64,000 nucleotides of DNA from an uncultured Verrucomicrobia subdivision 3 bacterium (GTDB taxonomy: Bacteria; Verrucomicrobiota; Verrucomicrobiia; Limisphaerales; UBA11358): positions 984-64,983 of the forward strand of contig CAJAQO010000215.1 in assembly GCA_903944085.1 (NCBI GenBank), in the 5' to 3' direction. The notes under the pieces were generated by a model that was given only the letters and a program-made list of their open reading frames with translations, did not search any database and was not told the origin of the DNA. Each line of letters opens with the position of its first letter. Position 1 is the stretch's first letter. The translations under genes were made by a program, and so were the position numbers. Positions 1-8,851 of this stretch are shown here, one piece after another.

Positions 1-764
1 GCAATCCGCAGCGGCATTTGCACCAGACACCGCAGCCATTGATCCGCGTCCGCCTCATCGGATTCCAAGACCGCATAGCGCCACGCCGTCACCGCCTCTT
101 CCGACCGCCGGGACAAATTCCCGTCACAGCGCGGATTCGGGAAAAATCCGCCGCTGACGGGTTGCGGCAAAAACCAGACACCATCATTGCCCGCCGGCAA
201 ATGACGGTTTTGGATAAAATCACTGCGGTCGGCTTCCCAAAGCAATTGGCCCTGGGACTTCATTTCCGTGAAAATCAAAATCTTTTCGCCCGCCCCGCGA
301 GCGTAGAGATGCCGCAACACACTGGCGGAATCCTGCCGGTCCACCGCGACCGGCGACCGCTCCGCCAAGCAGCGCGCCACGTCCGCGACGCTGGCCAACT
401 GCCCGGCGATCCGCGCCAGCACGGATTTTTTGAATTTTGGTTTCGGCGGCGGTGGCGGGATGGATTTTGCCGCGACCCTCCCCCCCCGTTTTTCCAGTGT
501 TCCAAGGAGATGCCCTAGCGGCAGCCGGTGAACCGTGTTCGCCGCGGATTTGATTTTGTGGACCAACTCGGCCTCGGTCCACGGCGGCAGGCACCGCCGG
601 TTGAACTCCAGGAGCAGAATCAGGGCATCCGCCTCATCGAGGGCGAAACCGTTGACCAGCACGCAAGCCACATGAAACGTGTCATCATGCCCGCCCTGAC
701 CGCTAACAGCCGGCAGGCATTTGGCAACGTATAAGCGCGCCCGTTCCATTGGGGAAAGTTTCAT
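1..764 (-). CDS. PriCT-like domain replication/primase-associated protein (C-terminus beyond window start)
   Basis: Absent from the ORF track because it runs off the left edge. Manual translation from ATG 764..762 is open down to base 1: MKLSPMERARLYVAKCLPAVSGQGGHDDTFHVACVLVNGFALDEADALILLLEFNRRCLPPWTEAELVHKIKSA..., later GVWFLPQPV...WRYAVLESDEAD. The N-terminal pattern resembles primase C-terminal (PriCT) helical domains of phage/plasmid primases. The acidic ESDEAD motif is compatible with a primase or Toprim-like catalytic core. Confidence 0.55.
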   Translation of the reverse strand, partial: MKLSPMERARLYVAKCLPAVSGQGGHDDTFHVACVLVNGFALDEADALILLLEFNRRCLPPWTEAELVHKIKSAANTVHRLPLGHLLGTLEKRGGRVAAKSIPPPPPKPKFKKSVLARIAGQLASVADVARCLAERSPVAVDRQDSASVLRHLYARGAGEKILIFTEMKSQGQLLWEADRSDFIQNRHLPAGNDGVWFLPQPVSGGFFPNPRCDGNLSRRSEEAVTAWRYAVLESDEADADQWLRCLVQMPLRI

Positions 765-800
765 CCGTAGATCTCCGGCGAAGGTGAGCTTGCGGTGAAC

Positions 801-1034
801 TTATTTCCGCCCGGCAGCTTTGGCGTCGAGTGCGGCTTTGCAAGCGACGGGATCGAAAAAAACTAAACGGCCAATTTTTGCAAACGGCAGCCGTCTGGCT
901 TTTTGTTGGTCCCGAATCCAGCGGAGGCTGGGGCGGCTGGCTTCATCGAAAAGGATTTCGAGCAGCTTTTCTGCATCAACGTAGCGCGTCGGCAGCGGGC
1001 TTTGTTTCTCGGTCTGCGATGTTAATTCACTCAT
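801..1034 (-). CDS. Excisionase/AlpA-like helix-turn-helix DNA-binding protein
   Basis: 77 aa. ...SLRWIRDQQKARRLPFAKIGRLVFFDPVACKAAL resembles Xis/AlpA-type HTH proteins (..w...g.lP..kiGr...f). It lies between the primase-like gene and the island cargo. Confidence 0.6.
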   Translation of the reverse strand: MSELTSQTEKQSPLPTRYVDAEKLLEILFDEASRPSLRWIRDQQKARRLPFAKIGRLVFFDPVACKAALDAKAAGRK

Positions 1035-1136
1035 GGTATCAACTGTGCAGAGTCAACTGGTTTAGTTGCGTTGCCCCGCACGTTGACAACTTTAGGCCGA
1101 CCTAAAAAAACTTCATGGGGTATAACAGACCGCGAT

Positions 1137-2009
1137 TTAGCACACGGACGGAGACTTGGGAGCGATGCTGCGAAACGCCTGCTGGATTCGTTTTTTAATG
1201 TCCCGCCGAATCAAAGCCCTGGCTTTCGACTGGCCTCGATAGACCGAATTTTTCCAGTAGCCGGAAAATTCTTTGTGGTTTTCAAAATCCTTGCCGTATA
1301 AACCTAGAAACATCGGCTCAAATTTTTTCCACCAAACCGCGTAATTTGCCCGCGTCAGCGGGCCGAGGCGCTTAAATTTAGAATCGTCATAAAAATATCG
1401 GCCATCTTCAGGATCGTAAGGGTCAATCCTTTCGTTGCGGCGCAATAAATACTGACGGTGTTCCAACAGGTTCAAAGCAACGCGGACTTCCGCCGTTTTC
1501 CGCGTCCACTGCTTTTTTTTGAAATTAAGCGGGGCATTTTCGCCGAGCCGCAAAAGGGCGATAATTTTTTTGTTCGCCTCTAGCTGGTCATGGTCAACCG
1601 ACAACACACCGGGCCATGTGCCGGTTTTTTCCGCCAGCTTGCGAAATACCGGGAGTGTGTAACCAGGTTGCTGAGCCTTGAAAGGTATTCCATCGCTGAA
1701 AAGGCGGACGCCACGGAGCAGCGCATTAACAAAGGCGATTGCAGCATCTTTATCATCTTTCAATGAAGCAATCTCGTAGAGTCCGCTCAATGTTTCGCGA
1801 GCAATCGCCGCAAGTTCACGCAGGCACAATTCATCTTTACGCAATTCGCCTTTGCTCAAATATCCCGTTACCAATTTTTCAACCGCCTCGTGCGCTGGTT
1901 GCCCGGTGCGAATTGCTGTCGGCAGGCCAATTTTTTGCCAACCCATTTTGCTCAAATCCAAAGGGGCAACCGCTTCTGTGCCTGACGTTGAAGGATTTGA
2001 CGTTTTCAT
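1137..2009 (-). CDS. Hypothetical protein, paralog 1 of island triad
   Basis: 290 aa. Shares LGENAPLN, LGPLTRANYAVWW, LYGKDFENHKEFSGYW and the ARALIRRDIKKRIQQAFRSIAPKS tail with the two upstream genes. Start overlaps the stop of paralog 2 (ATGA). Confidence 0.7.
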   Translation of the reverse strand: MKTSNPSTSGTEAVAPLDLSKMGWQKIGLPTAIRTGQPAHEAVEKLVTGYLSKGELRKDELCLRELAAIARETLSGLYEIASLKDDKDAAIAFVNALLRGVRLFSDGIPFKAQQPGYTLPVFRKLAEKTGTWPGVLSVDHDQLEANKKIIALLRLGENAPLNFKKKQWTRKTAEVRVALNLLEHRQYLLRRNERIDPYDPEDGRYFYDDSKFKRLGPLTRANYAVWWKKFEPMFLGLYGKDFENHKEFSGYWKNSVYRGQSKARALIRRDIKKRIQQAFRSIAPKSPSVC

Positions 2010-2956
2010 TTTGAACCACGCGCCTGTTTTTCACCACGGGAAGATTTGGGAGCGATGCTGCGGAAGGCTTGCTTGATTTGCTTTTTTATGTCCCGACGAA
2101 TCAATGCGCGGGCATTTTGCACCAAGCATTTCTGTCCCGGCTTGCCCGGCACATACTCTTTATAGGCATCACCATTCCAGTAGCCGGAAAAATCTTTGTG
2201 ATTCTCAAAATCTTTCCCGTAAAGTTGGATGAAGATCGGTTCGCCCAGATTCCACCATTCCAAAAAGTTTAGACGTGTCAGCGGTTGAAGCGTCCAAAGT
2301 TTTTTAATTTGTTCATCGCTTAAACCCAATTTGCGAGCATCGCCAAACCCAGGCCAACAAGGCATGATTAACGAACAGACAGGATCGCCGCCCAAAACCT
2401 CCATCTCATCAAGGGCATCGCGGCGGTAAAACTCGACCGCGCCCCAAAGTTTGCAGGCTATGCCGGTTGCGGTGTTTTCTAAAATCGAGAATGATTTGCG
2501 ACCATGCCGGGCAGTATTCAATGGCGCGGTTTCACCTAAATTTAGGGAATCCATCAATTCCTTGTTTGTCTTTTCGACATCCGCGCCCCAGCCAGTCATG
2601 CTGGGCCAATACAATTGATGTTTTGCAATTGGCCGGTAGAGATCGGGTCTGGCCTCACATGCCGCCAGCAAATTTCTCACGGACAGCAAAGCCAAATAAT
2701 AAAGTCTATTGGCAGCATCTTGATTTTCCTTTTCTGAAATTTCAACGCCAAACCACTTGAAGAACCGTTCCATTGACGGAACATAAAATGCCGGGAAGGG
2801 AAACACGTTCAGATGTGGTTGCGAAGAGGATCGCGGGCTAAATCGCAGTCCGCGCACCAGCCAGCCGAGCGCATGGTCTTCGTCAGTCCATTCCTTAATG
2901 TTTTGCGGGAATGTGTGCCAGGGCGCGGTCTTGTTTTTTGACTTTGGCTTTTTCAT
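2006..2956 (-). CDS. Hypothetical protein, paralog 2 of island triad
   Basis: 316 aa. Motifs LGETAPLN, LQPLTRLNFLEWW, LYGKDFENHKDFSGYW, ARALIRRDIKKQIKQAFRSIAPKS. The 5' end overlaps paralog 3 by 62 nt. Confidence 0.7.
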   Translation of the reverse strand: MKKPKSKNKTAPWHTFPQNIKEWTDEDHALGWLVRGLRFSPRSSSQPHLNVFPFPAFYVPSMERFFKWFGVEISEKENQDAANRLYYLALLSVRNLLAACEARPDLYRPIAKHQLYWPSMTGWGADVEKTNKELMDSLNLGETAPLNTARHGRKSFSILENTATGIACKLWGAVEFYRRDALDEMEVLGGDPVCSLIMPCWPGFGDARKLGLSDEQIKKLWTLQPLTRLNFLEWWNLGEPIFIQLYGKDFENHKDFSGYWNGDAYKEYVPGKPGQKCLVQNARALIRRDIKKQIKQAFRSIAPKSSRGEKQARGSK

Positions 2957-3869
2957 CTTGAATCGGAATGGGTTTTCTCACGGCGGACGGTTTGGCCGCA
3001 ATACTGTGGAAACCTTGCCGGAGCTTTTTCTTGATGTCCCGCCGGATCAAAGCGCGGGCGTTTGGCTCATCCTTGTATGCAGCGTTTTTCCAATAATGCG
3101 CAAAAGTTTTCCGGTTTTCAAAATCCTCACCCAAAGTCTTGATAAATAATTTCTCCCCAACTTTCCACCAATCGCGGTGGTTCGCTCTGGTGAGCGGCTG
3201 CAATGCCTGTGCCTCTGGCTGGAGAAAATCAAAGCCGATTCGTGCGGGACGAAGACTGTTTTCGCCCCGGCGGAGAAAATCAATTTGATCCCAAAGCTCC
3301 CAAGCCATCCGTGTTTCAACCGTATCCACCGAGAATGTTTTTCCCGTCGTGTTAATTGAGGATTTTTCCCCAAGCCGGATTTCATCCATCAATTCCTTGT
3401 TCGATTTTGCAACACCGGGATGCTTGCTGATAAAACCGGGCCAAAGAAAATCTTCCATCGCCATTGGCTGAAATTGTTTTGGATTTTTATACGCAGCTTT
3501 GTTCAACGCTGCCACCGCAATTTCCGCAACATAATGAAGCCGCTCCGCCGCTTCAGGATTTTCAGCGGCACAATCCGCCAGACAATCAAAGTAAAGTTCG
3601 GCAAATGGTTTGCTCCAAAAAAAATCTGGAATGTCAGAAAATTTGCAGCCCGGCACCTTTTGCAAAACATCACAAGAGCACCGGATAAATTTCATCACCG
3701 GCTCATCCTGGCGCTCCCACCACGTCCACGCTCGCTCCATGTGCTCGATGCCCTTGCGCTTAAATTCCTCCAATTCTTCGGCGGAAACTTTTTCGCCGGA
3801 ATCGTTGCCGCTAGGTGATGGCTTTTTCATTTTATTTTTTGCCGGCCTCTGGTGCCGGCTGAATGGCAA
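2895..3869 (-). CDS. Hypothetical protein, paralog 3 of island triad (likely start at ATG 3830..3828, MKKPSPSG)
   Basis: 324 aa as tracked. Motifs LGEKSSIN, LQPLTRANHRDWW, LGEDFENRKTFAHYW, ARALIRRDIKKKLRQGFHSIAAK. The internal ATG at 3830 lies 1 nt after the integrase stop and gives an N-terminus (MKKP..) like paralog 2. Confidence 0.7.
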   Translation of the reverse strand: MPFSRHQRPAKNKMKKPSPSGNDSGEKVSAEELEEFKRKGIEHMERAWTWWERQDEPVMKFIRCSCDVLQKVPGCKFSDIPDFFWSKPFAELYFDCLADCAAENPEAAERLHYVAEIAVAALNKAAYKNPKQFQPMAMEDFLWPGFISKHPGVAKSNKELMDEIRLGEKSSINTTGKTFSVDTVETRMAWELWDQIDFLRRGENSLRPARIGFDFLQPEAQALQPLTRANHRDWWKVGEKLFIKTLGEDFENRKTFAHYWKNAAYKDEPNARALIRRDIKKKLRQGFHSIAAKPSAVRKPIPIQDEKAKVKKQDRALAHIPAKH

Positions 3870-5139
3870 ACCACTCCGCCGCCGCCGCCGGCCGCATCCG
3901 CTTCAAATAATTCGTGCGGATGACTTGCGGGCTGTTGCCAGCCTCATCGGCCACGCGCGGCACGTCGCCAGATTCGGCCACGCGGGCCGAAATGTAAGTG
4001 TGCCGCAGCGCATTGTGTTTCCACTCCATCGCCTCGATTTCATTCTCTGCGTCGGCGGTGTCCGTCGCTGTTTTCAAAAGTTGCTTCGTCGTGTTCACCA
4101 AGGAAACGACTTTACCGTTTTTTTTCGCCAGAGGCAGCAAGAACGCTTTCAAGTTGGCTTTCAGCGGCACAATCCGGCGCGTGTCGGTTTTGGCGTTTTC
4201 TGCTTTGACCTCGATAAAACCTTCTTCCAGGTCAATGTCCTGCCAGTCCAGCCGCGCAATCTCGGCGTGGCGCAGGCCGGCGAACCCGCCAATGACGATC
4301 ATGGGCAGAATCCGCTCATCGGCGGCGGCAATCAGCCGTTGCATTTCGTCGGCGGTGTAGGTGGAAATCTGGCCCAGCTTGCGCGCCGTATAGTTTTGGA
4401 CGCCCTCCAGCCAGTGCGTGCCTTTTGCCAAATAGCCGCGCAGAACCAACCAGCGGTTGAAAAAGCCGATGACATCGCGGTGATTCCGGCGAGTGCGTTC
4501 AGCCAATTCCAGCGCAGTCAAATAGTCTGCAATCAATTTCGGCGTGAGCGTGGAGACTTCCTGATTGAAATTTTCCGCGAACCGATCCAGCACATTCGCC
4601 AACTGTTTCAGGCGCAAGTCGGATTTACCATCCGTCTCGGCCTGAGTTTTCATCAGTTCGACGGCAGCAGCCACGGTGATCTTGGGCAGTTCGACGGCGT
4701 GGCGTTTCAACCAGTCGCGGGTGACTCCCAGCGGCGTTTCCCGTCCCCCCAACATTCGGCGGATTTCGCAAATTTCCCCGACCAGTTCGTCTATCTCTTT
4801 TTCTATCTTTGTCTCACCCTCCTTGCCTTTGATAAAGGCGCGGGCACGGATGATGGCGTGAGCATCGGCGGATTTGAGGTTGAGGACTTCGGACTGGCCT
4901 TCCGTGATCTTGTCAACGGCTTCGTCGGCGGCTTTGCGGGCCTTGGCCATTGTGGAGCGCCACACCAATTTGCGCTTACCATTGGCTCGATAATCCAGCA
5001 CAAAACGGGTGACGCCATTCTTGATTGTGGGGCGAATACGGACGGAAATTCCGTTTTTCTTGAACTCTTTGACCGCGCCAGCTTCGGGGATGTTGGCGTT
5101 TTCGGATTCCTTAACGGTGGTAGATGCGTCTGTTTTCAT
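3832..5139 (-). CDS. int: Tyrosine site-specific recombinase (phage-type integrase)
   Basis: 435 aa. C-terminal catalytic region GLRHAEIARLDWQDIDLEEGFIEV...HNALRHTYISARV...GNSPQVIRTNYLK shows the R..H.R..Y pattern. Directly adjacent to the tRNA 3' end. Confidence 0.9.
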   Translation of the reverse strand: MKTDASTTVKESENANIPEAGAVKEFKKNGISVRIRPTIKNGVTRFVLDYRANGKRKLVWRSTMAKARKAADEAVDKITEGQSEVLNLKSADAHAIIRARAFIKGKEGETKIEKEIDELVGEICEIRRMLGGRETPLGVTRDWLKRHAVELPKITVAAAVELMKTQAETDGKSDLRLKQLANVLDRFAENFNQEVSTLTPKLIADYLTALELAERTRRNHRDVIGFFNRWLVLRGYLAKGTHWLEGVQNYTARKLGQISTYTADEMQRLIAAADERILPMIVIGGFAGLRHAEIARLDWQDIDLEEGFIEVKAENAKTDTRRIVPLKANLKAFLLPLAKKNGKVVSLVNTTKQLLKTATDTADAENEIEAMEWKHNALRHTYISARVAESGDVPRVADEAGNSPQVIRTNYLKRMRPAAAAEWFAIQPAPEAGKK

Positions 5140-5199
5140 CTATCCACATGATAGACTATGGATAGATTTTAGTCAATACCTCGTTTTTCCTAATAAAAA

Positions 5200-5277
5200 T
5201 GGTCGGGGCGGTGAGATTCGAACTCACGACCTCTTGTACCCGAAACAAGCGCGCTAGCCAGGCTACGCTACGCCCCG
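5200..5277 (-). tRNA. tRNA-Pro (anticodon CGG), encoded CCA
   Basis: Reverse complement CGGGGCGTAGCGTAGCCTGGCTAGCGCGCTTGTTTCGGGTACAAGAGGTCGTGAGTTCGAATCTCACCGCCCCGACCA. Acceptor stem is CGGGGCG/CGCCCCG. Anticodon stem CTTGT/ACAAG has loop TTCGGGT. T-arm contains GTTCGAATC. Confidence 0.93.
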
Positions 5278-5702: not shown

Positions 5703-7073
5703 CTAGCGCAGGTAGCCATCCAAGCCCACGTCCAGGCAGCGGTTCAAGCCGGGATGCTCCAGACTGTTGATGTCGCTTTCCACCGCGCTGTGCTGGTGGC
5801 GCAATGCCCGGAACTGCTTCCCGTTCTCCCGAGCCGTTTCCGCCACGCTCTTTCTGCCGCGTTTGGGCACCACCACCGTCGGCACATACAAACGCAACAA
5901 TTCCCAGTCCGCCGCTCGGGTGAAGCCTTTGTCAAAACTCCGGCTGCCCACGCTCCCCGTCCCGAAGCGGCCCAGCAACCGATCCGCCACCGGAATGCTC
6001 TGCTCCACTTCCGCCGCTTGGAGCAGCACGTCATAATTCTGGATGATTTGGTGTTGATCGGTCGCCACCAGAAAACGGTGGCCCAACGCCACATTCGGCC
6101 GTTGCTTGCCTTTTTGAATCCATTCCGTATGCGGTTCAAACAGGGAGAAGACCTTCTCGTGTGCCGGAATGGTTTCCTCCTTCAGCAACCGCCGTTTGAC
6201 CAGGTCGAGATGCTTGTCGAGCATCCCGTGGAAATAGGCGAGTCGCTCCCAGCGGGTGGCGTCCACGGCCTGGTCGCACAAGCCCAGCAAACTCTCCCGC
6301 ACCTTGGCGGAAAGCTCCCAGCCCATCCCCAGATGCGCGCGCACGGCGGATTTCACCCGGGCTTCCTTGTTCGGCCCGCCGCGATAGACAATCTGACTGG
6401 CGGTGCGTTCGCACGCCTTGAGTTGTCGCCGCCAGGCCTTGAACTTGCGCCAGCCCGGCAGGGCGTGACCGGAATCGCGCAGCCCTTCCACCAGGACCAC
6501 ACACTTGCGGCCTGCGTCCCAGAGCAGGTTCAAGTCGGTGGGGAAATGCACGTCGGTTTCCAACACATAGCTGTCCACTTTCACTTCGAGCGCCGCGACG
6601 GGCGCGCCGCCTTTTTTTACGAACACCTCGCGGCCTGCGGCCGCAATGGCCGCGTTGATCCGTTGCAGCAGTTCGTCATCCAGCAAGGCGACATTGTCCC
6701 GCAGGGTTTGATGGCCGAACCGTTTGTCTTCCTCGCCCCAAGGTGCGGCCGGCACGCCGAGCATCTGGCGCACGCGAGAATCGTAGTCGGCGATGTGTTC
6801 CATCCGATCCCAGTCGGCGTCCAGTCCGAGGCACACGACGCCCAGCACAAGGATTTGCCAGAGATCCATGCCCGTGCGCCCGGTGGCCTTTTTGCCAGCC
6901 AGAATCTTGGCTTCGAGTAAGGCGAAGATCTCCGCCTTGAGTGGGGGGTGCGTCCCAATCCACTGGAGACCCGCGAGCATCGGCGGCAGCGCGTCGCGAC
7001 TCCTCAGCGGCAGACGAATCTTCTCGATGGGCGTGATTTGCAGATCGGGCTGGCTTTGAAAGTTGTGGCGCAT
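5703..7073 (-). CDS. ISNCY-family-like DDE transposase
   Basis: 456 aa. The N-terminus ...ITPIEKIRLPLRSRDALPPMLAGLQWIGTHPPLKAEIFALLEAKILAGKKATGRTGMDLWQILVLGVV matches my recollection of proteins annotated as ISNCY family transposases. IS ends could not be defined. Confidence 0.65.
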   Translation of the reverse strand: MRHNFQSQPDLQITPIEKIRLPLRSRDALPPMLAGLQWIGTHPPLKAEIFALLEAKILAGKKATGRTGMDLWQILVLGVVCLGLDADWDRMEHIADYDSRVRQMLGVPAAPWGEEDKRFGHQTLRDNVALLDDELLQRINAAIAAAGREVFVKKGGAPVAALEVKVDSYVLETDVHFPTDLNLLWDAGRKCVVLVEGLRDSGHALPGWRKFKAWRRQLKACERTASQIVYRGGPNKEARVKSAVRAHLGMGWELSAKVRESLLGLCDQAVDATRWERLAYFHGMLDKHLDLVKRRLLKEETIPAHEKVFSLFEPHTEWIQKGKQRPNVALGHRFLVATDQHQIIQNYDVLLQAAEVEQSIPVADRLLGRFGTGSVGSRSFDKGFTRAADWELLRLYVPTVVVPKRGRKSVAETARENGKQFRALRHQHSAVESDINSLEHPGLNRCLDVGLDGYLR

Positions 7074-7215: not shown

Positions 7216-7755
7216 TTACGCTGCAAGGGTGGCGGGCATTGTTATGTGTTTGTTTGTTTTTCGCGGGCCGGTTTTCTGCTGTTGATTTGCTTCCCGGCAC
7301 CGGCAGCGCTGGGCAATTTTCTTGATGCGTCGTTGCTCGACGATGCTTGGCCGCTGGCCGTCATGGGCTTGTTGCGGGGTGACGTAGTCGATGCCTGAAT
7401 GGTGATATTCAGAGTCATACCAGGTAAAGTAGCGACTGAAGTATTCCTTGGCCTGGGCGTCATCCCGGAAATGTCCGGAATACGCTGGGACGCGTTTGAC
7501 GGAGCTGAAGGCCGATTCAATGAACGGATTGTCATTGGGGGTGCGGGGGCGGACAAACAACTGCGGCAGGCCGTGAGCTTCACACAGTCGCTGGATGGGC
7601 TCGGCTTGCATCTGGAGGCCGCGATCATTGATGATTTCGGGGCGCTGTTCCTCGGTCAGGCCGCCCTCCAGCACGCGTCGGGATTCCGCAGCGCTCTGCT
7701 GCCAGGCGATGTGCCACTTGACTTTGCGGGACCACTCATCCAGCAGCAGATAGAG
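7216..7755 (-). pseudogene. 5'-truncated IS3-family transposase orfB (rve integrase core only)
   Basis: The reading frame extends upstream of the tracked start to a stop at 7758..7756: LYLLLDEWSRKVKWHIAWQQ...INDRGLQM...TPNDNPFIESAFSSVK...YHHSGIDYVTP. The N-terminal HTH region and orfA are missing. Confidence 0.75.
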
Positions 7756-7994: not shown

Positions 7995-8780
7995 CTAATA
8001 AACGTGGGCGTAATTCTGCCGGTCGGTATCGCTGATGCACCAAAGGTTGAGCGGATACATGACCTTGGGGCATTTGTAGTAGCGGGCGCTCCCGTCCGTG
8101 AAAGCATAGTTTGAACCACCAGATCCCGAACCGGACGTGGCGTTGGCACCGGTGCCGGAGTGGCGGCTCTGCTCGAGCACCTGGTCAATGTCGTTGCCAT
8201 TGCCTTCCAGCAAATCCATATAGTAATCCGTGGCGGACGTGAATTTTTCACCAAGGATAATCGTTTCGCTGGGATAGCGGATGGCATTTTCCTTCAACCC
8301 GCTTTGAGCTTCAGCATTTTGCACCTGCGTAAAATCCGTGGTGCCAAGGCTGGCGGCAAACCAGTCATTCCAGCCGTTGATCAAATAGCTGCGGGGCGCG
8401 GCGTCGGCCACGTTGTTTGATCCGGACCCGGACTGCGGGATTTGGCCGTTGATGCCGTCAGTTGGGCACAGCAGCAGTTTGGTATTTTTGCCGTAGCTCT
8501 CGTAGAATTTGTCCGGCCACCGGTCGGTGTTGGAACGCACGGGATAAGCCCCCCGGTTATCATCCACATAAAGGCGCGAGGCAATGCTCAACTGCCGGAG
8601 ATTATTCAAACACGCAATGCGCTTGCCCGTTTCCTTGGCCCGGGCCAGCGCCGGCAGCAGCATCGCCGCCAGAATCGCGATGATGGCGATGACCACCAGC
8701 AATTCAATCAGTGTGAACGCGCGGTCGGCGCGAATTTTTGGTTCGCGGCGGCCGTAAATTTTTTGTTCGTTTTTTTTCAT
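7995..8780 (-). CDS. Prepilin-type N-terminal cleavage/methylation domain protein (PVC-type pseudopilin-like)
   Basis: [50 protein letters not shown]...; C-terminal ...[12 protein letters not shown]. Start taken at the internal ATG (8780) rather than the tracked 8834. Confidence 0.85.
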
Positions 8781-8851
8781 AACCTGTCGTCCTTGAATTG
8801 CGTCTGACCACCCAGTTCGACGCGTTGGGTCCACGCCGCGTTACAAATTTT

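Follow-up and report, generated by a model that had tools for sequence, protein, structure and literature searches.

The three consecutive genes P3, P2, and P1, which lie intact on the minus strand directly after a tyrosine integrase gene (int) at a tRNA-Pro gene, are real genes under purifying selection, and we find that their products belong to an undescribed family of proteins of ~300 aa that are mostly alpha-helical, basic, and apparently non-enzymatic. They sit in a 64,000-nucleotide stretch of DNA from an uncultured Verrucomicrobia subdivision 3 bacterium (hereafter, the window), within what is, judged from its genes, a small tRNA-integrated, phage-satellite-like element. The position of the P genes suggests a regulator or a protective payload. 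As a tentative first choice, we read them as non-enzymatic, trans-acting regulator or immunity proteins in the slot that is equivalent to that of stl or cI.

The P gene array and its flanks

The open reading frames that a previous sequence-only reading had described were all recovered (Table 1). For P3, the frame from the first TTG spans 2895-3869; the likely start is the ATG at 3830, since this start is called in identical and related contigs and is conserved in orthologs. The junctions were also as claimed: One base separates the int stop codon TAA (3834-3832) from this ATG, the P3-P2 overlap measures 62 nt, and the P2-P1 junction is an ATGA. All genes of the int-P-xis region are co-directional, and int and the P genes form the tightly packed unit that had been proposed, a layout that suggests co-transcription of int, P3, P2, and P1. 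Orthologs displayed dN/dS ratios of 0.16-0.20 for P3 (at 85-92% identity), 0.20-0.25 for P2, and 0.17-0.28 for P1 (overall range 0.13-0.28), which signifies purifying selection, and identical copies of P1 were found on four metagenome contigs. The P genes are indeed AT-richer than their surroundings, with a GC content of 48.6-49.4% versus 56.3% in int, 61% in the primase-like gene, and 57.5% in the window.

Table 1. Features of the element in the window.
Feature	Position	Strand	Description
Primase-like gene, 5′ part	1..764	-	whole gene 353 aa; truncated at the window start
Xis/AlpA-like small protein (tentative)	801..1034	-	77 aa; phrog_1840 excisionase, weak match (E 0.0023)
Imperfect hairpin/palindrome	1037..1088	-	~19 bp, 12-nt loop; 3′ arm stops 2 nt short of the xis ATG; invariant GTTGACT inside
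Box TTATACCCCATG, within TAAATCGCGGTCTGTTATACCCCATG	1114..1125	-	starts ~11 nt after the P1 stop
P1	1137..2009	-	290 aa; start overlaps the P2 stop (ATGA)
P2	2006..2956	-	316 aa; 3′ module of the 11-aa insert type (VPGKPGQKCLV)
P3	2895..3830	-	311 aa from ATG 3830; 26-aa C-terminal extension overlaps the P2 start
Tyrosine integrase (int)	3832..5139	-	435 aa; Pfam Phage_integrase 6.9e-11; weak Arm-DNA-bind_3; phrog_1 integrase 7.5e-22
int promoter-like site	5140..5176	-	TTGACT 5176-5171, 17 nt, TATCAT 5153-5148; 10/12 matches in consensus scan
7-bp inverted repeat CTATCCA / TGGATAG	5165-5159 and 5146-5140	-	brackets the -10 box of the int promoter-like site
tRNA-Pro(CGG)	5200..5277	-	ARAGORN; Rfam tRNA, 61.5 bits

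Because the 3′ end of the tRNA-Pro(CGG) gene points toward int, this gene is the probable attachment site; two relatives (L041 and L002; see below) have att repeats where a tRNA gene ends 3′, and the second att copy of the window element lies outside the window. The promoter-like site before int is kept in elements at four different integration sites, where the inverted repeat around its -10 box shows a compensatory change from CCA..TGG to CCG..CGG. Because the int ATG follows the -10 box by 8 nt, the int mRNA would be leaderless or nearly so. We found no terminator-like site conserved among relatives inside the int-P array, no convincing sigma-70 promoter in the P-xis spacer (by consensus scan and sequence inspection), and no operator common to this spacer and the int promoter, while an Rfam scan of the island returned the tRNA only.

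Two noncoding features follow the array. The box TTATACCCCATG occurs once in the window (chance expectation, 0.05 matches) and once each in 39 of 68 loci, always just 3′ of the last P gene; it is missing where the slot holds a non-P gene and so travels with P arrays. The hairpin beyond it is kept, with differing sequences, in four divergent lineages (single-sequence folds, z of -2.5 to -3.5) and is present in two sister elements without P genes (L076 and L077), from which we conclude that it travels with xis. RNAalifold on a MAFFT alignment of the P-xis spacer gave a weak or empty result with no consensus structure, as this alignment is not structure-consistent. TCAAC/GTTGA repeats, considered as iterons or operators, resolve into the two arms of this single hairpin. 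The placement of the P genes between int and the Xis-like and primase-like genes of a tRNA-integrated element thus held, with the xis gene itself a tentative assignment: The Xis-like open reading frame had no match in Pfam or the PDB, and the gene at its position in a distant relative is a Pfam HTH_17 protein (1.5e-9).

Paralogy and protein features of P1, P2, and P3

That the three proteins are paralogs with a shared basic tail and diverged N-termini was confirmed by pairwise BLASTP (E 6e-31 to 3e-42), with ~38% identity over the C-terminal 170-230 aa and first 105-120 residues that BLAST cannot align among the paralogs. Identity is 34-36% in the overall alignment, in which the ARALIRRDIKK tail is invariant. 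The 3′ ends of P1 and P2 had been described as nearly identical in DNA; the exact 17-mer (1156-1172 and 2046-2062) and 15-mer (1254-1268 and 2177-2191) on which this was based exist, but the sequence around them matches at 83% across 75 nt and 78% across 68 nt, respectively. The recent duplication or gene conversion proposed from them did not survive scrutiny: Synonymous sites in the tails are saturated (dS at least 1), and the fraction of identical codons among same-residue codons is 0.57, versus 0.41-0.59 elsewhere in the genes. Given this saturation, we attribute the DNA similarity to amino-acid constraint. The 3′ module of P2 is common to P1- and P2-type genes elsewhere at 86-88% nucleotide identity, and such comparisons support an exchange at an earlier time, in which 3′ modules passed from one paralog type to another. 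The further idea of a specificity-diversified module, with a constant tail and variable N-termini, stood in part: The C-terminal part is conserved and the N-termini fall into discrete types, but each type is conserved among orthologs (dN/dS 0.14-0.29) and shows no rapid diversification.

An exhaustive search for relatives of the P proteins yielded about 1,000 clusters, every one unnamed, and the named relatives found were Verrucomicrobiota without exception. In agreement with the earlier statement that P1-P3 carry no recognisable family signature, profiles from Pfam, PHROGs, NCBIfam, and PADLOC gave nothing beyond noise for the three proteins, and Pfam and PHROGs scans of 58 diverse family members gave single-member noise matches only. 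PDB sequence-profile matches, to designed helical bundles and ribosome recycling factor helices, were compositional noise. The AlphaFold model of P2 (pLDDT 78, pTM 0.71) is all-alpha with a small hairpin. With a Foldseek criterion of E <0.001, the best values were 2.6 against the PDB and 1.2 against BFVD for the full-length model (pLDDT 78) and 2.1 for a C-terminal model (pLDDT 86); recurring matches to T4-lysozyme-like endolysins were noise (E 2-5, TM ~0.15). Profiles and predicted structures, which had been suggested as a check for homology to a characterised family, hence gave no match. No match was obtained by tblastn of the family against 50,697 phage and 72,556 plasmid records either, and hhalign of the P profile against the int and xis families of the element indicated no relation (probability 0.1-0.2%).

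The P proteins have a pI of 9.0-9.8 overall, 9.3-10.2 in the C-terminal half, and 12 in the tail. Across the wide family, few residues are invariant, mostly aromatic or aliphatic ones plus R287, which argues against an enzyme. As neither Pfam nor the fold search detected an HTH or other DNA-binding fold, and Foldseek came back empty, it is the charge of the proteins that points to possible nucleic-acid binding.

Related elements and the slot between int and xis

Related loci have a common layout of int, a variable slot, an xis-like gene, primase, helicase, TerS, and TerL, spanning 7-10 kb with att repeats at tRNAs. In three relatives (L001, L004, and L065), the backbone consists of a phrog_2597 primase, an AAA_25 or D5/DUF5906 helicase, TerS (phrog_6299, 1e-22), and TerL (phrog_979, 1e-24), accompanied by several small genes without annotation, and no capsid or tail genes were seen there. 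Contigs with the backbone are also present in IMG/VR (L065/L074, L072, L076, L077, L085, and L089). The window copy spans the int-proximal 5.3 kb, up to the start of the primase-like gene, and contigs that are 99.9% identical to window positions 1-3375 (L007-L009) continue into the 353-aa gene (phrog_2597 DNA primase, 4e-16) and a 506-aa D5/DUF5906 primase-helicase. Relatives that could be delimited are of small size: L041 measures 9.4 kb, including ~4 kb of IS and cargo, with a 76-nt att repeat at the tRNA 3′ end, and L002 measures 7.1 kb, with five genes and a 30-nt att repeat at the tRNA 3′ end. L001 lies at the same tRNA as the window element, and its att repeat was not found within 13 kb of its sequence. 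Elements at tRNA-Pro(CGG), tRNA-Pro(GGG), and tRNA-Ala all carry the same P types, with more distant members at tRNA-Arg, Leu, and Glu.

In these traits, the relatives resemble PICI-like elements and virion-encapsidated integrative mobile elements (VEIMEs; PMC9618062), which likewise combine such a size, att sites at tRNA 3′ ends, a tyrosine integrase, an AlpA/excisionase-like gene, primase/helicase, and a small terminase, with no capsid genes seen. They differ in that they also encode a TerL-like protein, and for them both packaging and a helper phage are putative. VEIMEs are reported in Verrucomicrobia too, and the P family is not named among their genes in the accessible part of that source (PMC9618062).

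The P proteins could conceivably serve this backbone as replication or packaging proteins, by binding an origin or pac site or by hijacking helper capsids, given that they are basic, that they lie near primase/helicase and, in relatives, TerS/TerL genes, and that a conserved noncoding box stands 3′ of the array. We regard this as very improbable: The P genes are grouped with int, an xis-linked region separates them from the replication and packaging genes, sister elements with the same primase, helicase, TerS, and TerL lack them, cassettes without any such genes carry them, and no iteron array was found.

There are one to three P genes per locus, in any subset but in the fixed order P3>P2>P1, and they always lie immediately upstream of an xis-type gene, with a conserved spacer of ~100 nt. 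Among 23 non-redundant loci whose upstream sequence reached 1 kb or more, int was adjacent in 11 and separated from P by cargo in 2, while 10 had no int of this family in the 1-9 kb available upstream. The coupling of P to int that had been proposed is thus common but not obligatory, as int-less P3-P2 cassettes (below) also illustrate. Where cargo is recognisable, it lies between int and P, which it can separate by 1-4 kb: IS/T5orf172/Sel1 in L041, Ig/SHOCT in L020, and RM-I/Mrr in L066. Sister elements, which we found through TerL and whose slot we judged where the int-xis interval was complete, can have an int of ~90% identity and yet lack P. In L072, L076, and L077, the slot instead holds unrelated genes of 212-354 aa, whose products share at most a MKKSKSKTK start peptide with P (L072 and L076). 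In L089, it holds a divergently transcribed 244-aa protein with a weakly but consistently XRE-type HTH at its N-terminus (PDB CylR2, PbsX family, and ClgR; E 0.01-0.65).

Intact P3-P2 pairs, with dN/dS of 0.13-0.23, were moreover found in cassettes without int, functional xis, primase, helicase, or terminase. These are bordered by direct repeats of 120-176 nt, which gave nothing in Rfam and fold no better than shuffles, and one contig has AbiJ-, MmeI-, SNF2-, and PDDEXK-type genes in their vicinity. CIMEs are cis-mobilizable, integrase-less elements flanked by att sites; the cassettes are alike in lacking int and in their flanking repeats, but these are seen as direct repeats only, with a putative role as att sites and putative movement.

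Such data make it improbable that the P proteins assist the integrase as accessory factors for directionality, synapsis, or target choice, comparable to the additional excision genes of the Bacteroides mobilizable elements NBU1 and Tn4555. In favor of this role, int and P are coupled stop to start or closely spaced in roughly half of the loci, P lies between int and xis, and there is a precedent in NBU1, whose excision requires further genes besides Int and RDF; in NBU1 and Tn4555, the genes of unknown function that excision requires stand alongside int, a small RDF, and a primase homolog (PMC5704250). Yet, P is retained under selection without any int, tolerates the intervening cargo, occurs as the same types at several tRNA sites, and is missing in sister elements with an int of ~90% identity, apart from being unrelated to int and xis by hhalign. 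No relaxase or oriT was seen in P elements, which we compared with NBU1/Tn4555 by description.

The sequence-only reading had regarded the P genes as candidate island cargo. As an accessory payload, they would form a non-enzymatic module for phage defence, superinfection exclusion, or helper interference whose benefit to the host or element does not depend on excision and replication, with N-terminal types that recognise different targets. We consider this the main rival reading, possible and only slightly less likely than our tentative first choice. Defence genes are known to cluster next to int in P4-like satellites, PICIs, and prophages, and the P set is comparably placed by int, variable in copy number, and 7-12 GC points below the other element genes, with RM/Mrr/T5orf172 genes in this interval in relatives. 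The repeat-flanked cassettes near defence-type genes fit as well, and because sister elements replace P with unrelated genes, P may be payload. On the other hand, P stays fixed beside xis with bona fide cargo and defence genes upstream of it and not in its place, and the equivalent slot of L089 has an XRE-like repressor. Furthermore, no PADLOC, Pfam, or PHROG match, known defence domain, or conserved catalytic-type residues were found in P, the defence-type neighbors in some loci are not homologous to it, its N-terminal types are conserved instead of diversifying, and the family is absent from the phage and plasmid records searched.

A possible regulatory or immunity role and its meaning

The regulator or immunity reading, which we tentatively prefer, draws on the constant adjacency of P to an xis-type gene with cargo kept on the int side, the small size and satellite-like backbone of the delimited relatives, and the XRE-like HTH protein in the equivalent slot of L089. 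It is further favored by the P-linked box 3′ of the arrays, the strong promoter-like site before int with no conserved terminator-like site behind it, the basic pI, few invariant residues, and fixed array order, and the low dN/dS of these real genes, both in orthologs and in int-less cassettes. Against it stand the missing DNA-binding fold and empty Foldseek searches, the absence of P from sister elements with other slot genes, the int-less cassettes, which leave nothing obvious to regulate in cis, the unusual tandem of non-identical regulators, and the lack of a common operator at the int promoter and the P-xis spacer. SaPI Stl is a master repressor that is transcribed divergently from the operon it represses, has its operators between the two, and is relieved by a protein of the helper phage. 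P resembles SaPI/PICI Stl and phage cI in its location between int and the xis/primase/replication genes and in that the occupant of this slot differs strongly between related elements; it differs in having no sequence or fold similarity to them and no HTH, in coming as one to three tandem paralogs co-directional with xis (as opposed to the divergent stl/str and cI/cro layouts), and in persisting without the genes that it would regulate.

If P proteins are regulators, their synthesis would accompany that of Int while the element is integrated, driven by the conserved sigma-70-type promoter via the (near-)leaderless int mRNA, with the tight or overlapping junctions coupling their expression to that of int. 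The conserved C-terminal half, which ends in a predicted exposed, basic amphipathic helix (ARALIRRDIKKxIxQAFRSIA), may be a common output part that binds nucleic acid or a shared partner, whereas the N-terminal types P3, P2, and P1 would be alternative input parts, such that an array of one to three genes widens the range of signals to which the element responds. Their target would presumably be the expression of the downstream xis, replication, and packaging genes. More speculatively, and in our view unlikely as a whole, the family could be a modular sensor-effector that phage satellites use and whose fold has not been seen before, where the basic C-terminal part acts on nucleic acid, interchangeable N-terminal types each recognise a phage cue, and arrays of one to three genes set which phages induce or are blocked; it could then also work alone, as the int-less cassettes hint, as a stand-alone immunity or defence family of Verrucomicrobiota.

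Outside Proteobacteria and Firmicutes, hardly any descriptions exist of phage satellites and small integrative elements. The present locus and those related to it sketch a family of satellite-like elements in soil and peat Verrucomicrobiota, whose regulator or payload slot is in many cases occupied by members of a protein family that comprises about 1,000 clusters and has neither annotation nor structural relative. If the P proteins are regulators, they would represent a new nucleic-acid-binding fold and a new wiring of satellite induction; if they are payload, they would make up a protective gene family that is new and non-enzymatic. In either case, the family merits a name, and concrete starting points for experiments lie in the fixed array order, the box linked to it, and the self-standing cassettes.

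Three paralogous genes behind the integrase

Directly downstream of the tyrosine integrase gene (int), which lies next to a tRNA-Pro gene, the minus strand of the window carries three consecutive genes that we refer to as P3, P2 and P1, followed by a 77-aa xis-like ORF. The int stop codon TAA (3834-3832) is separated by a single base from an ATG at 3830. This ATG is the called start of P3 on identical and related contigs and opens the conserved MKKPSPS N-terminus of the orthologs, so P3 most likely encodes a protein of 311 aa. P3 runs 62 nt into P2, while P2 and P1 have an ATGA in common. Judged by sequence, the products are clear paralogs: pairwise BLASTP aligned their C-terminal 170-230 residues at ~38% identity (E 6e-31 to 3e-42), and yielded no pairwise alignment for the first 105-120 residues. 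The ORFs, the junctions and BLASTP thus bear out the sequence-only reading, which had noted paralogous genes behind int; P1, P2 and P3 all carry the shared motifs it quoted, together with the invariant ARALIRRDIKK tail, and the segment is, as it stated, AT-richer (48.6-49.4% GC in the P genes versus 56.3% in int, 61% in the truncated downstream gene and 57.5% in the whole window). The P genes are real, with dN/dS values of 0.17-0.28 against orthologs on other contigs. On metagenome contigs, some P copies are split into two ORFs, by frameshifts or assembly errors, which suggests occasional pseudogenisation.

Coordinates of features in the window and at loci of relatives (L numbers)
Feature	Source	Position	Strand	Remark
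Gene running off window start	window		minus	follows the 77-aa ORF
xis-like ORF, 77 aa	window	801-1034	minus	
Hairpin	window	1037-1088	minus	equivalents L004, L041, L069
Box TTATACCCCATG	window	1114-1125	minus	
P1	window	1137-2009	minus	
P2	window	2006-2956	minus	
P3	window	2895-3869	minus	from first TTG; likely 2895-3830 from ATG
Tyrosine integrase, 435 aa	window	3832-5139	minus	
int promoter-like site	window	5140-5176	minus	equivalents L001, L017, L031, L004, L027
tRNA-Pro(CGG)	window	5200-5277	minus	
456-aa ORF	window	5703-7073	minus	no Pfam match; lies with the next two on other side of tRNA
152-aa rve_3 integrase-core fragment	window	7216-7674	minus	IS remnant
Protein with prepilin-type N-terminal methylation motif	window	7995-8834	minus	
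TerS-like and TerL-like genes	L001	13622-15601		after helicase
TerS-like and TerL-like genes	L004	12592-14558		after helicase
TerS-like and TerL-like genes	L065/L074	3527-5541		after helicase
att repeats	L041	1606-1681 and 10989-11064		element 9.4 kb
att repeats	L002	8624-8653 and 15690-15719		
Slot occupant	L072	1326-1964		
Slot occupant	L076	1229-1936		
Slot occupant	L077	1282-2346		
Slot occupant	L089	3392-4126	minus	
Cassette repeats	L069	1375-1540 and 3648-3810		similar repeats L021-L026, L070, L071, L047
Split P copy	L019	1074-1946		
Split P copy	L036	303-1897		
Split P copies	L040, L044			
Distant P member and neighbors	L068	77-10133		

The P family is undescribed, with no relatives detectable by sequence or fold. 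Sequence searches of Pfam, PHROGs, NCBIfam, PADLOC and PDB gave no match for P1, P2, P3 or 58 diverse relatives. AlphaFold predicts P2 to be mostly helical, with a single small hairpin and a long helix at the C-terminus (pLDDT 78, pTM 0.71); a second model, limited to the last 156 residues, reached pLDDT 86. Foldseek searches of PDB and BFVD with both models produced no hit with an E-value below about 1. Searched exhaustively with a family profile, 1.84 billion cluster representatives yielded 1,028 proteins at E ≤ 1e-3, 299 of them at E ≤ 1e-10; all members with a source name are annotated as hypothetical and come from Pedosphaera, Limisphaerales, Verrucomicrobia subdivision 3 and Verrucomicrobiae MAGs. 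None of 50,697 phage records and none of 72,556 plasmid records matched. The proteins are basic, with a pI of 9.0-9.8 overall, 9.3-10.2 in the C-terminal half and 12 in the tail. The nearly invariant residues of the family at large are limited to W117, P118, L223, W234, R287 and I290, which do not resemble an active site. A distant member at locus L068 lies behind an integrase with an ATGA-type overlap, ahead of a fused Prim-Pol/D5_N/DUF5906 protein, and has KorA/KorB/ParA, DUF932 and zeta-toxin genes as neighbors, which resembles the setting of a plasmid or an ICE.

Recent duplication or gene conversion, proposed from near-identical 3' ends of P1 and P2, is not supported. The 17-mer and 15-mer common to both genes do exist exactly, embedded in stretches of 83% and 78% identity. 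Within the 23-codon tail, 91% of the residues are identical, yet only 57% of the same-residue codons are (dS ~1), no different from the remainder of the two genes (0.41-0.59), so the DNA similarity is what amino-acid constraint leads one to expect. An older exchange of a 3' module between P types did take place: a 56-codon module with the 11-residue insert VPGKPGQKCLV is common to the window P2, a P2-type gene (L004) and a P1-type gene (L031), at 86-88% nucleotide identity and a third-position identity of 0.71-0.73, and a P3-type gene (L002) carries a more distant form of it. The N-terminal part is conserved within each type (dN/dS 0.14-0.29), so that the family shows a set of distinct N-terminal types in place of hypervariable ends.

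A satellite-like element with a variable int-xis interval

Contigs that are 99.9% identical to window positions 1-3375 reach past the window start, where they encode a 353-aa primase-like protein (phrog_2597, 4e-16) and a 506-aa D5/DUF5906 primase-helicase. In L001, a relative integrated at the same tRNA-Pro (~90% nucleotide identity over int-P3-P2), the genes run int, P3, P2, xis-like, primase-like, AAA_25 helicase, TerS (phrog_6299, 1.3e-22) and TerL (phrog_979, 1.2e-24), a plan repeated in L004 and in the IMG/VR contig L065/L074. Two further elements could be delimited by direct repeats: one by a 76-nt repeat that includes a tRNA-Glu 3' end, with copies 9,383 bp apart (L041), and one by a 30-nt repeat at a tRNA-Arg 3' end, with copies ~7.1 kb apart (L002). 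No capsid or tail genes were seen. The architecture is thus phage-satellite-like, although the relatives' elements carry their own TerL-like large terminase; the window holds only the int-proximal part of its element. Similar elements, integrated at tRNAs and equipped with an integrase, AlpA/excisionase, primase/helicase and small terminase, have been reported from marine virus particles, also for Verrucomicrobia (PMC9618062). The element type, a tRNA-integrated, satellite-like island, is already known; the array logic, a linked box and stand-alone cassettes are new details.

At 46 non-redundant loci, P genes occur in one, two or three tandem copies, as P3-P2-P1, P3-P2, P2-P1, P2 alone or P3 alone, and always in the order P3, P2, P1 when they co-occur. 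Upstream sequence of 1 kb or more was available for 23 loci: int lay directly upstream of P in 11 (L027 included), other genes intervened in 2, and the available upstream 1-9 kb held no integrase of the window's int family in the remaining 10. The intervening genes encode a Sel1 protein, an IS transposase (DDE_Tnp_1) and a T5orf172 protein in L041, and Ig-domain and SHOCT/DUF4429 proteins in L020. At a locus with a distant member (L066), where the available sequence contains no integrase, type I restriction-modification genes and an Mrr-type nuclease gene precede P and an HTH_17 gene directly follows it. From these three layouts, recognisable cargo sits between int and P, while P stays beside xis.

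Sampling a second time with TerL as the seed, and hence without bias with respect to P, revealed that P is not universal. The sister elements found in this way have the same xis, primase, helicase, TerS and TerL genes and an int that is, by eye and where comparable, ~90% identical. P occupies the int-xis interval in L085, L001 and L074 (whose contig begins inside P), and unrelated proteins of 212, 235 and 354 aa occupy it in L072, L076 and L077, so this interval is a variable slot. The 235-aa protein shares only a MKKSKSKTK start peptide with P2-type proteins. A further occupant, in divergent orientation (L089, 244 aa), gave weak but consistent N-terminal matches to XRE-type HTH regulators (CylR2, PbsX family, ClgR; E 0.01-0.65) and looks like a classical repressor. 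The earlier proposal of a "cargo system" is therefore only partly supported: the slot is variable and P replaceable, but recognisable cargo lies upstream and P is fixed beside xis.

Linked cis elements and stand-alone cassettes

Ahead of int we found a promoter-like site, TATTGAC(A/T)-17-TATCAT, whose -10 box is followed 8 nt later by the int ATG; we infer a leaderless int mRNA. The site is conserved in elements at four different integration sites, and a 7-bp inverted repeat that brackets its -10 box shows compensatory change. About 11 nt after the stop codon of the last P gene lies a box, TAAATC.CGG.CTGTTATACCCCATG, which occurred once per locus in 39 of the 68 loci examined, always after the last P gene. 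Since it is missing where the slot holds a non-P gene, the box belongs to the P module. The rest of the P-xis spacer forms a long imperfect hairpin or palindrome with arms of ~19 bp, whose 3' arm ends 2 nt ahead of the xis ATG and which contains an invariant GTTGACT. It is kept in four divergent lineages with different sequences (z -2.5 to -3.5); MAFFT alignments yielded no consensus structure, so covariation is not formally shown. The hairpin also occurs in L076 and L077, two sister elements that lack P, and hence belongs to xis, where it could gate translation or act as an operator.

At least nine contigs (L021-L026, L069-L071) carry intact P3-P2 pairs as int-less cassettes, in three diverged versions, between direct repeats of 120-176 nt. 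The cassettes include the box and the spacer as well as a truncated gene downstream, and no int, primase, helicase or terminase gene. The repeats are GC-rich and 82-100% identical between contigs, with no Rfam family match and no unusual folding. They may be att sites, in which case the cassettes would be CIME-like derivatives. With dN/dS values of 0.13-0.23 for P3 and P2 among the versions, P is retained by selection without element mobility genes in cis. A role as integrase cofactor is weakened by this retention without int, as well as by the sister elements that have a near-identical int and no P, and we consider it improbable; a role in replication or packaging, weakened by the same kind of reason, is more improbable still.

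In L069, genes of AbiJ, MmeI, SNF2 and PDDEXK type lie 5-10 kb downstream of the cassette. Survival in int-less cassettes near such defence-type genes, replaceability by unrelated genes and low GC all suit an autonomous payload, such as an exclusion or defence function, a reading that we rate nearly as high as the regulator reading given below, each of the two being less likely than not.

A tentative role beside xis

We tentatively favor, as one possibility, that P is tied to the control of the xis, replication and packaging genes, as a positional equivalent of stl or cI. This regulator reading draws on the fixed place of P beside xis and downstream of cargo, and on the XRE-like protein in the same slot of a sister element. 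P and Int would be produced jointly while the element is integrated, the conserved basic C-terminal part of P would provide a shared output, and the three N-terminal types may act as alternative inputs. These facts and those that speak for a payload would be reconciled if P were an immunity-type regulator with an additional action in trans on incoming relatives. Overall, the locus offers a sizeable unnamed protein family of putative regulatory or payload function, possibly with a new fold, in an under-studied phylum.
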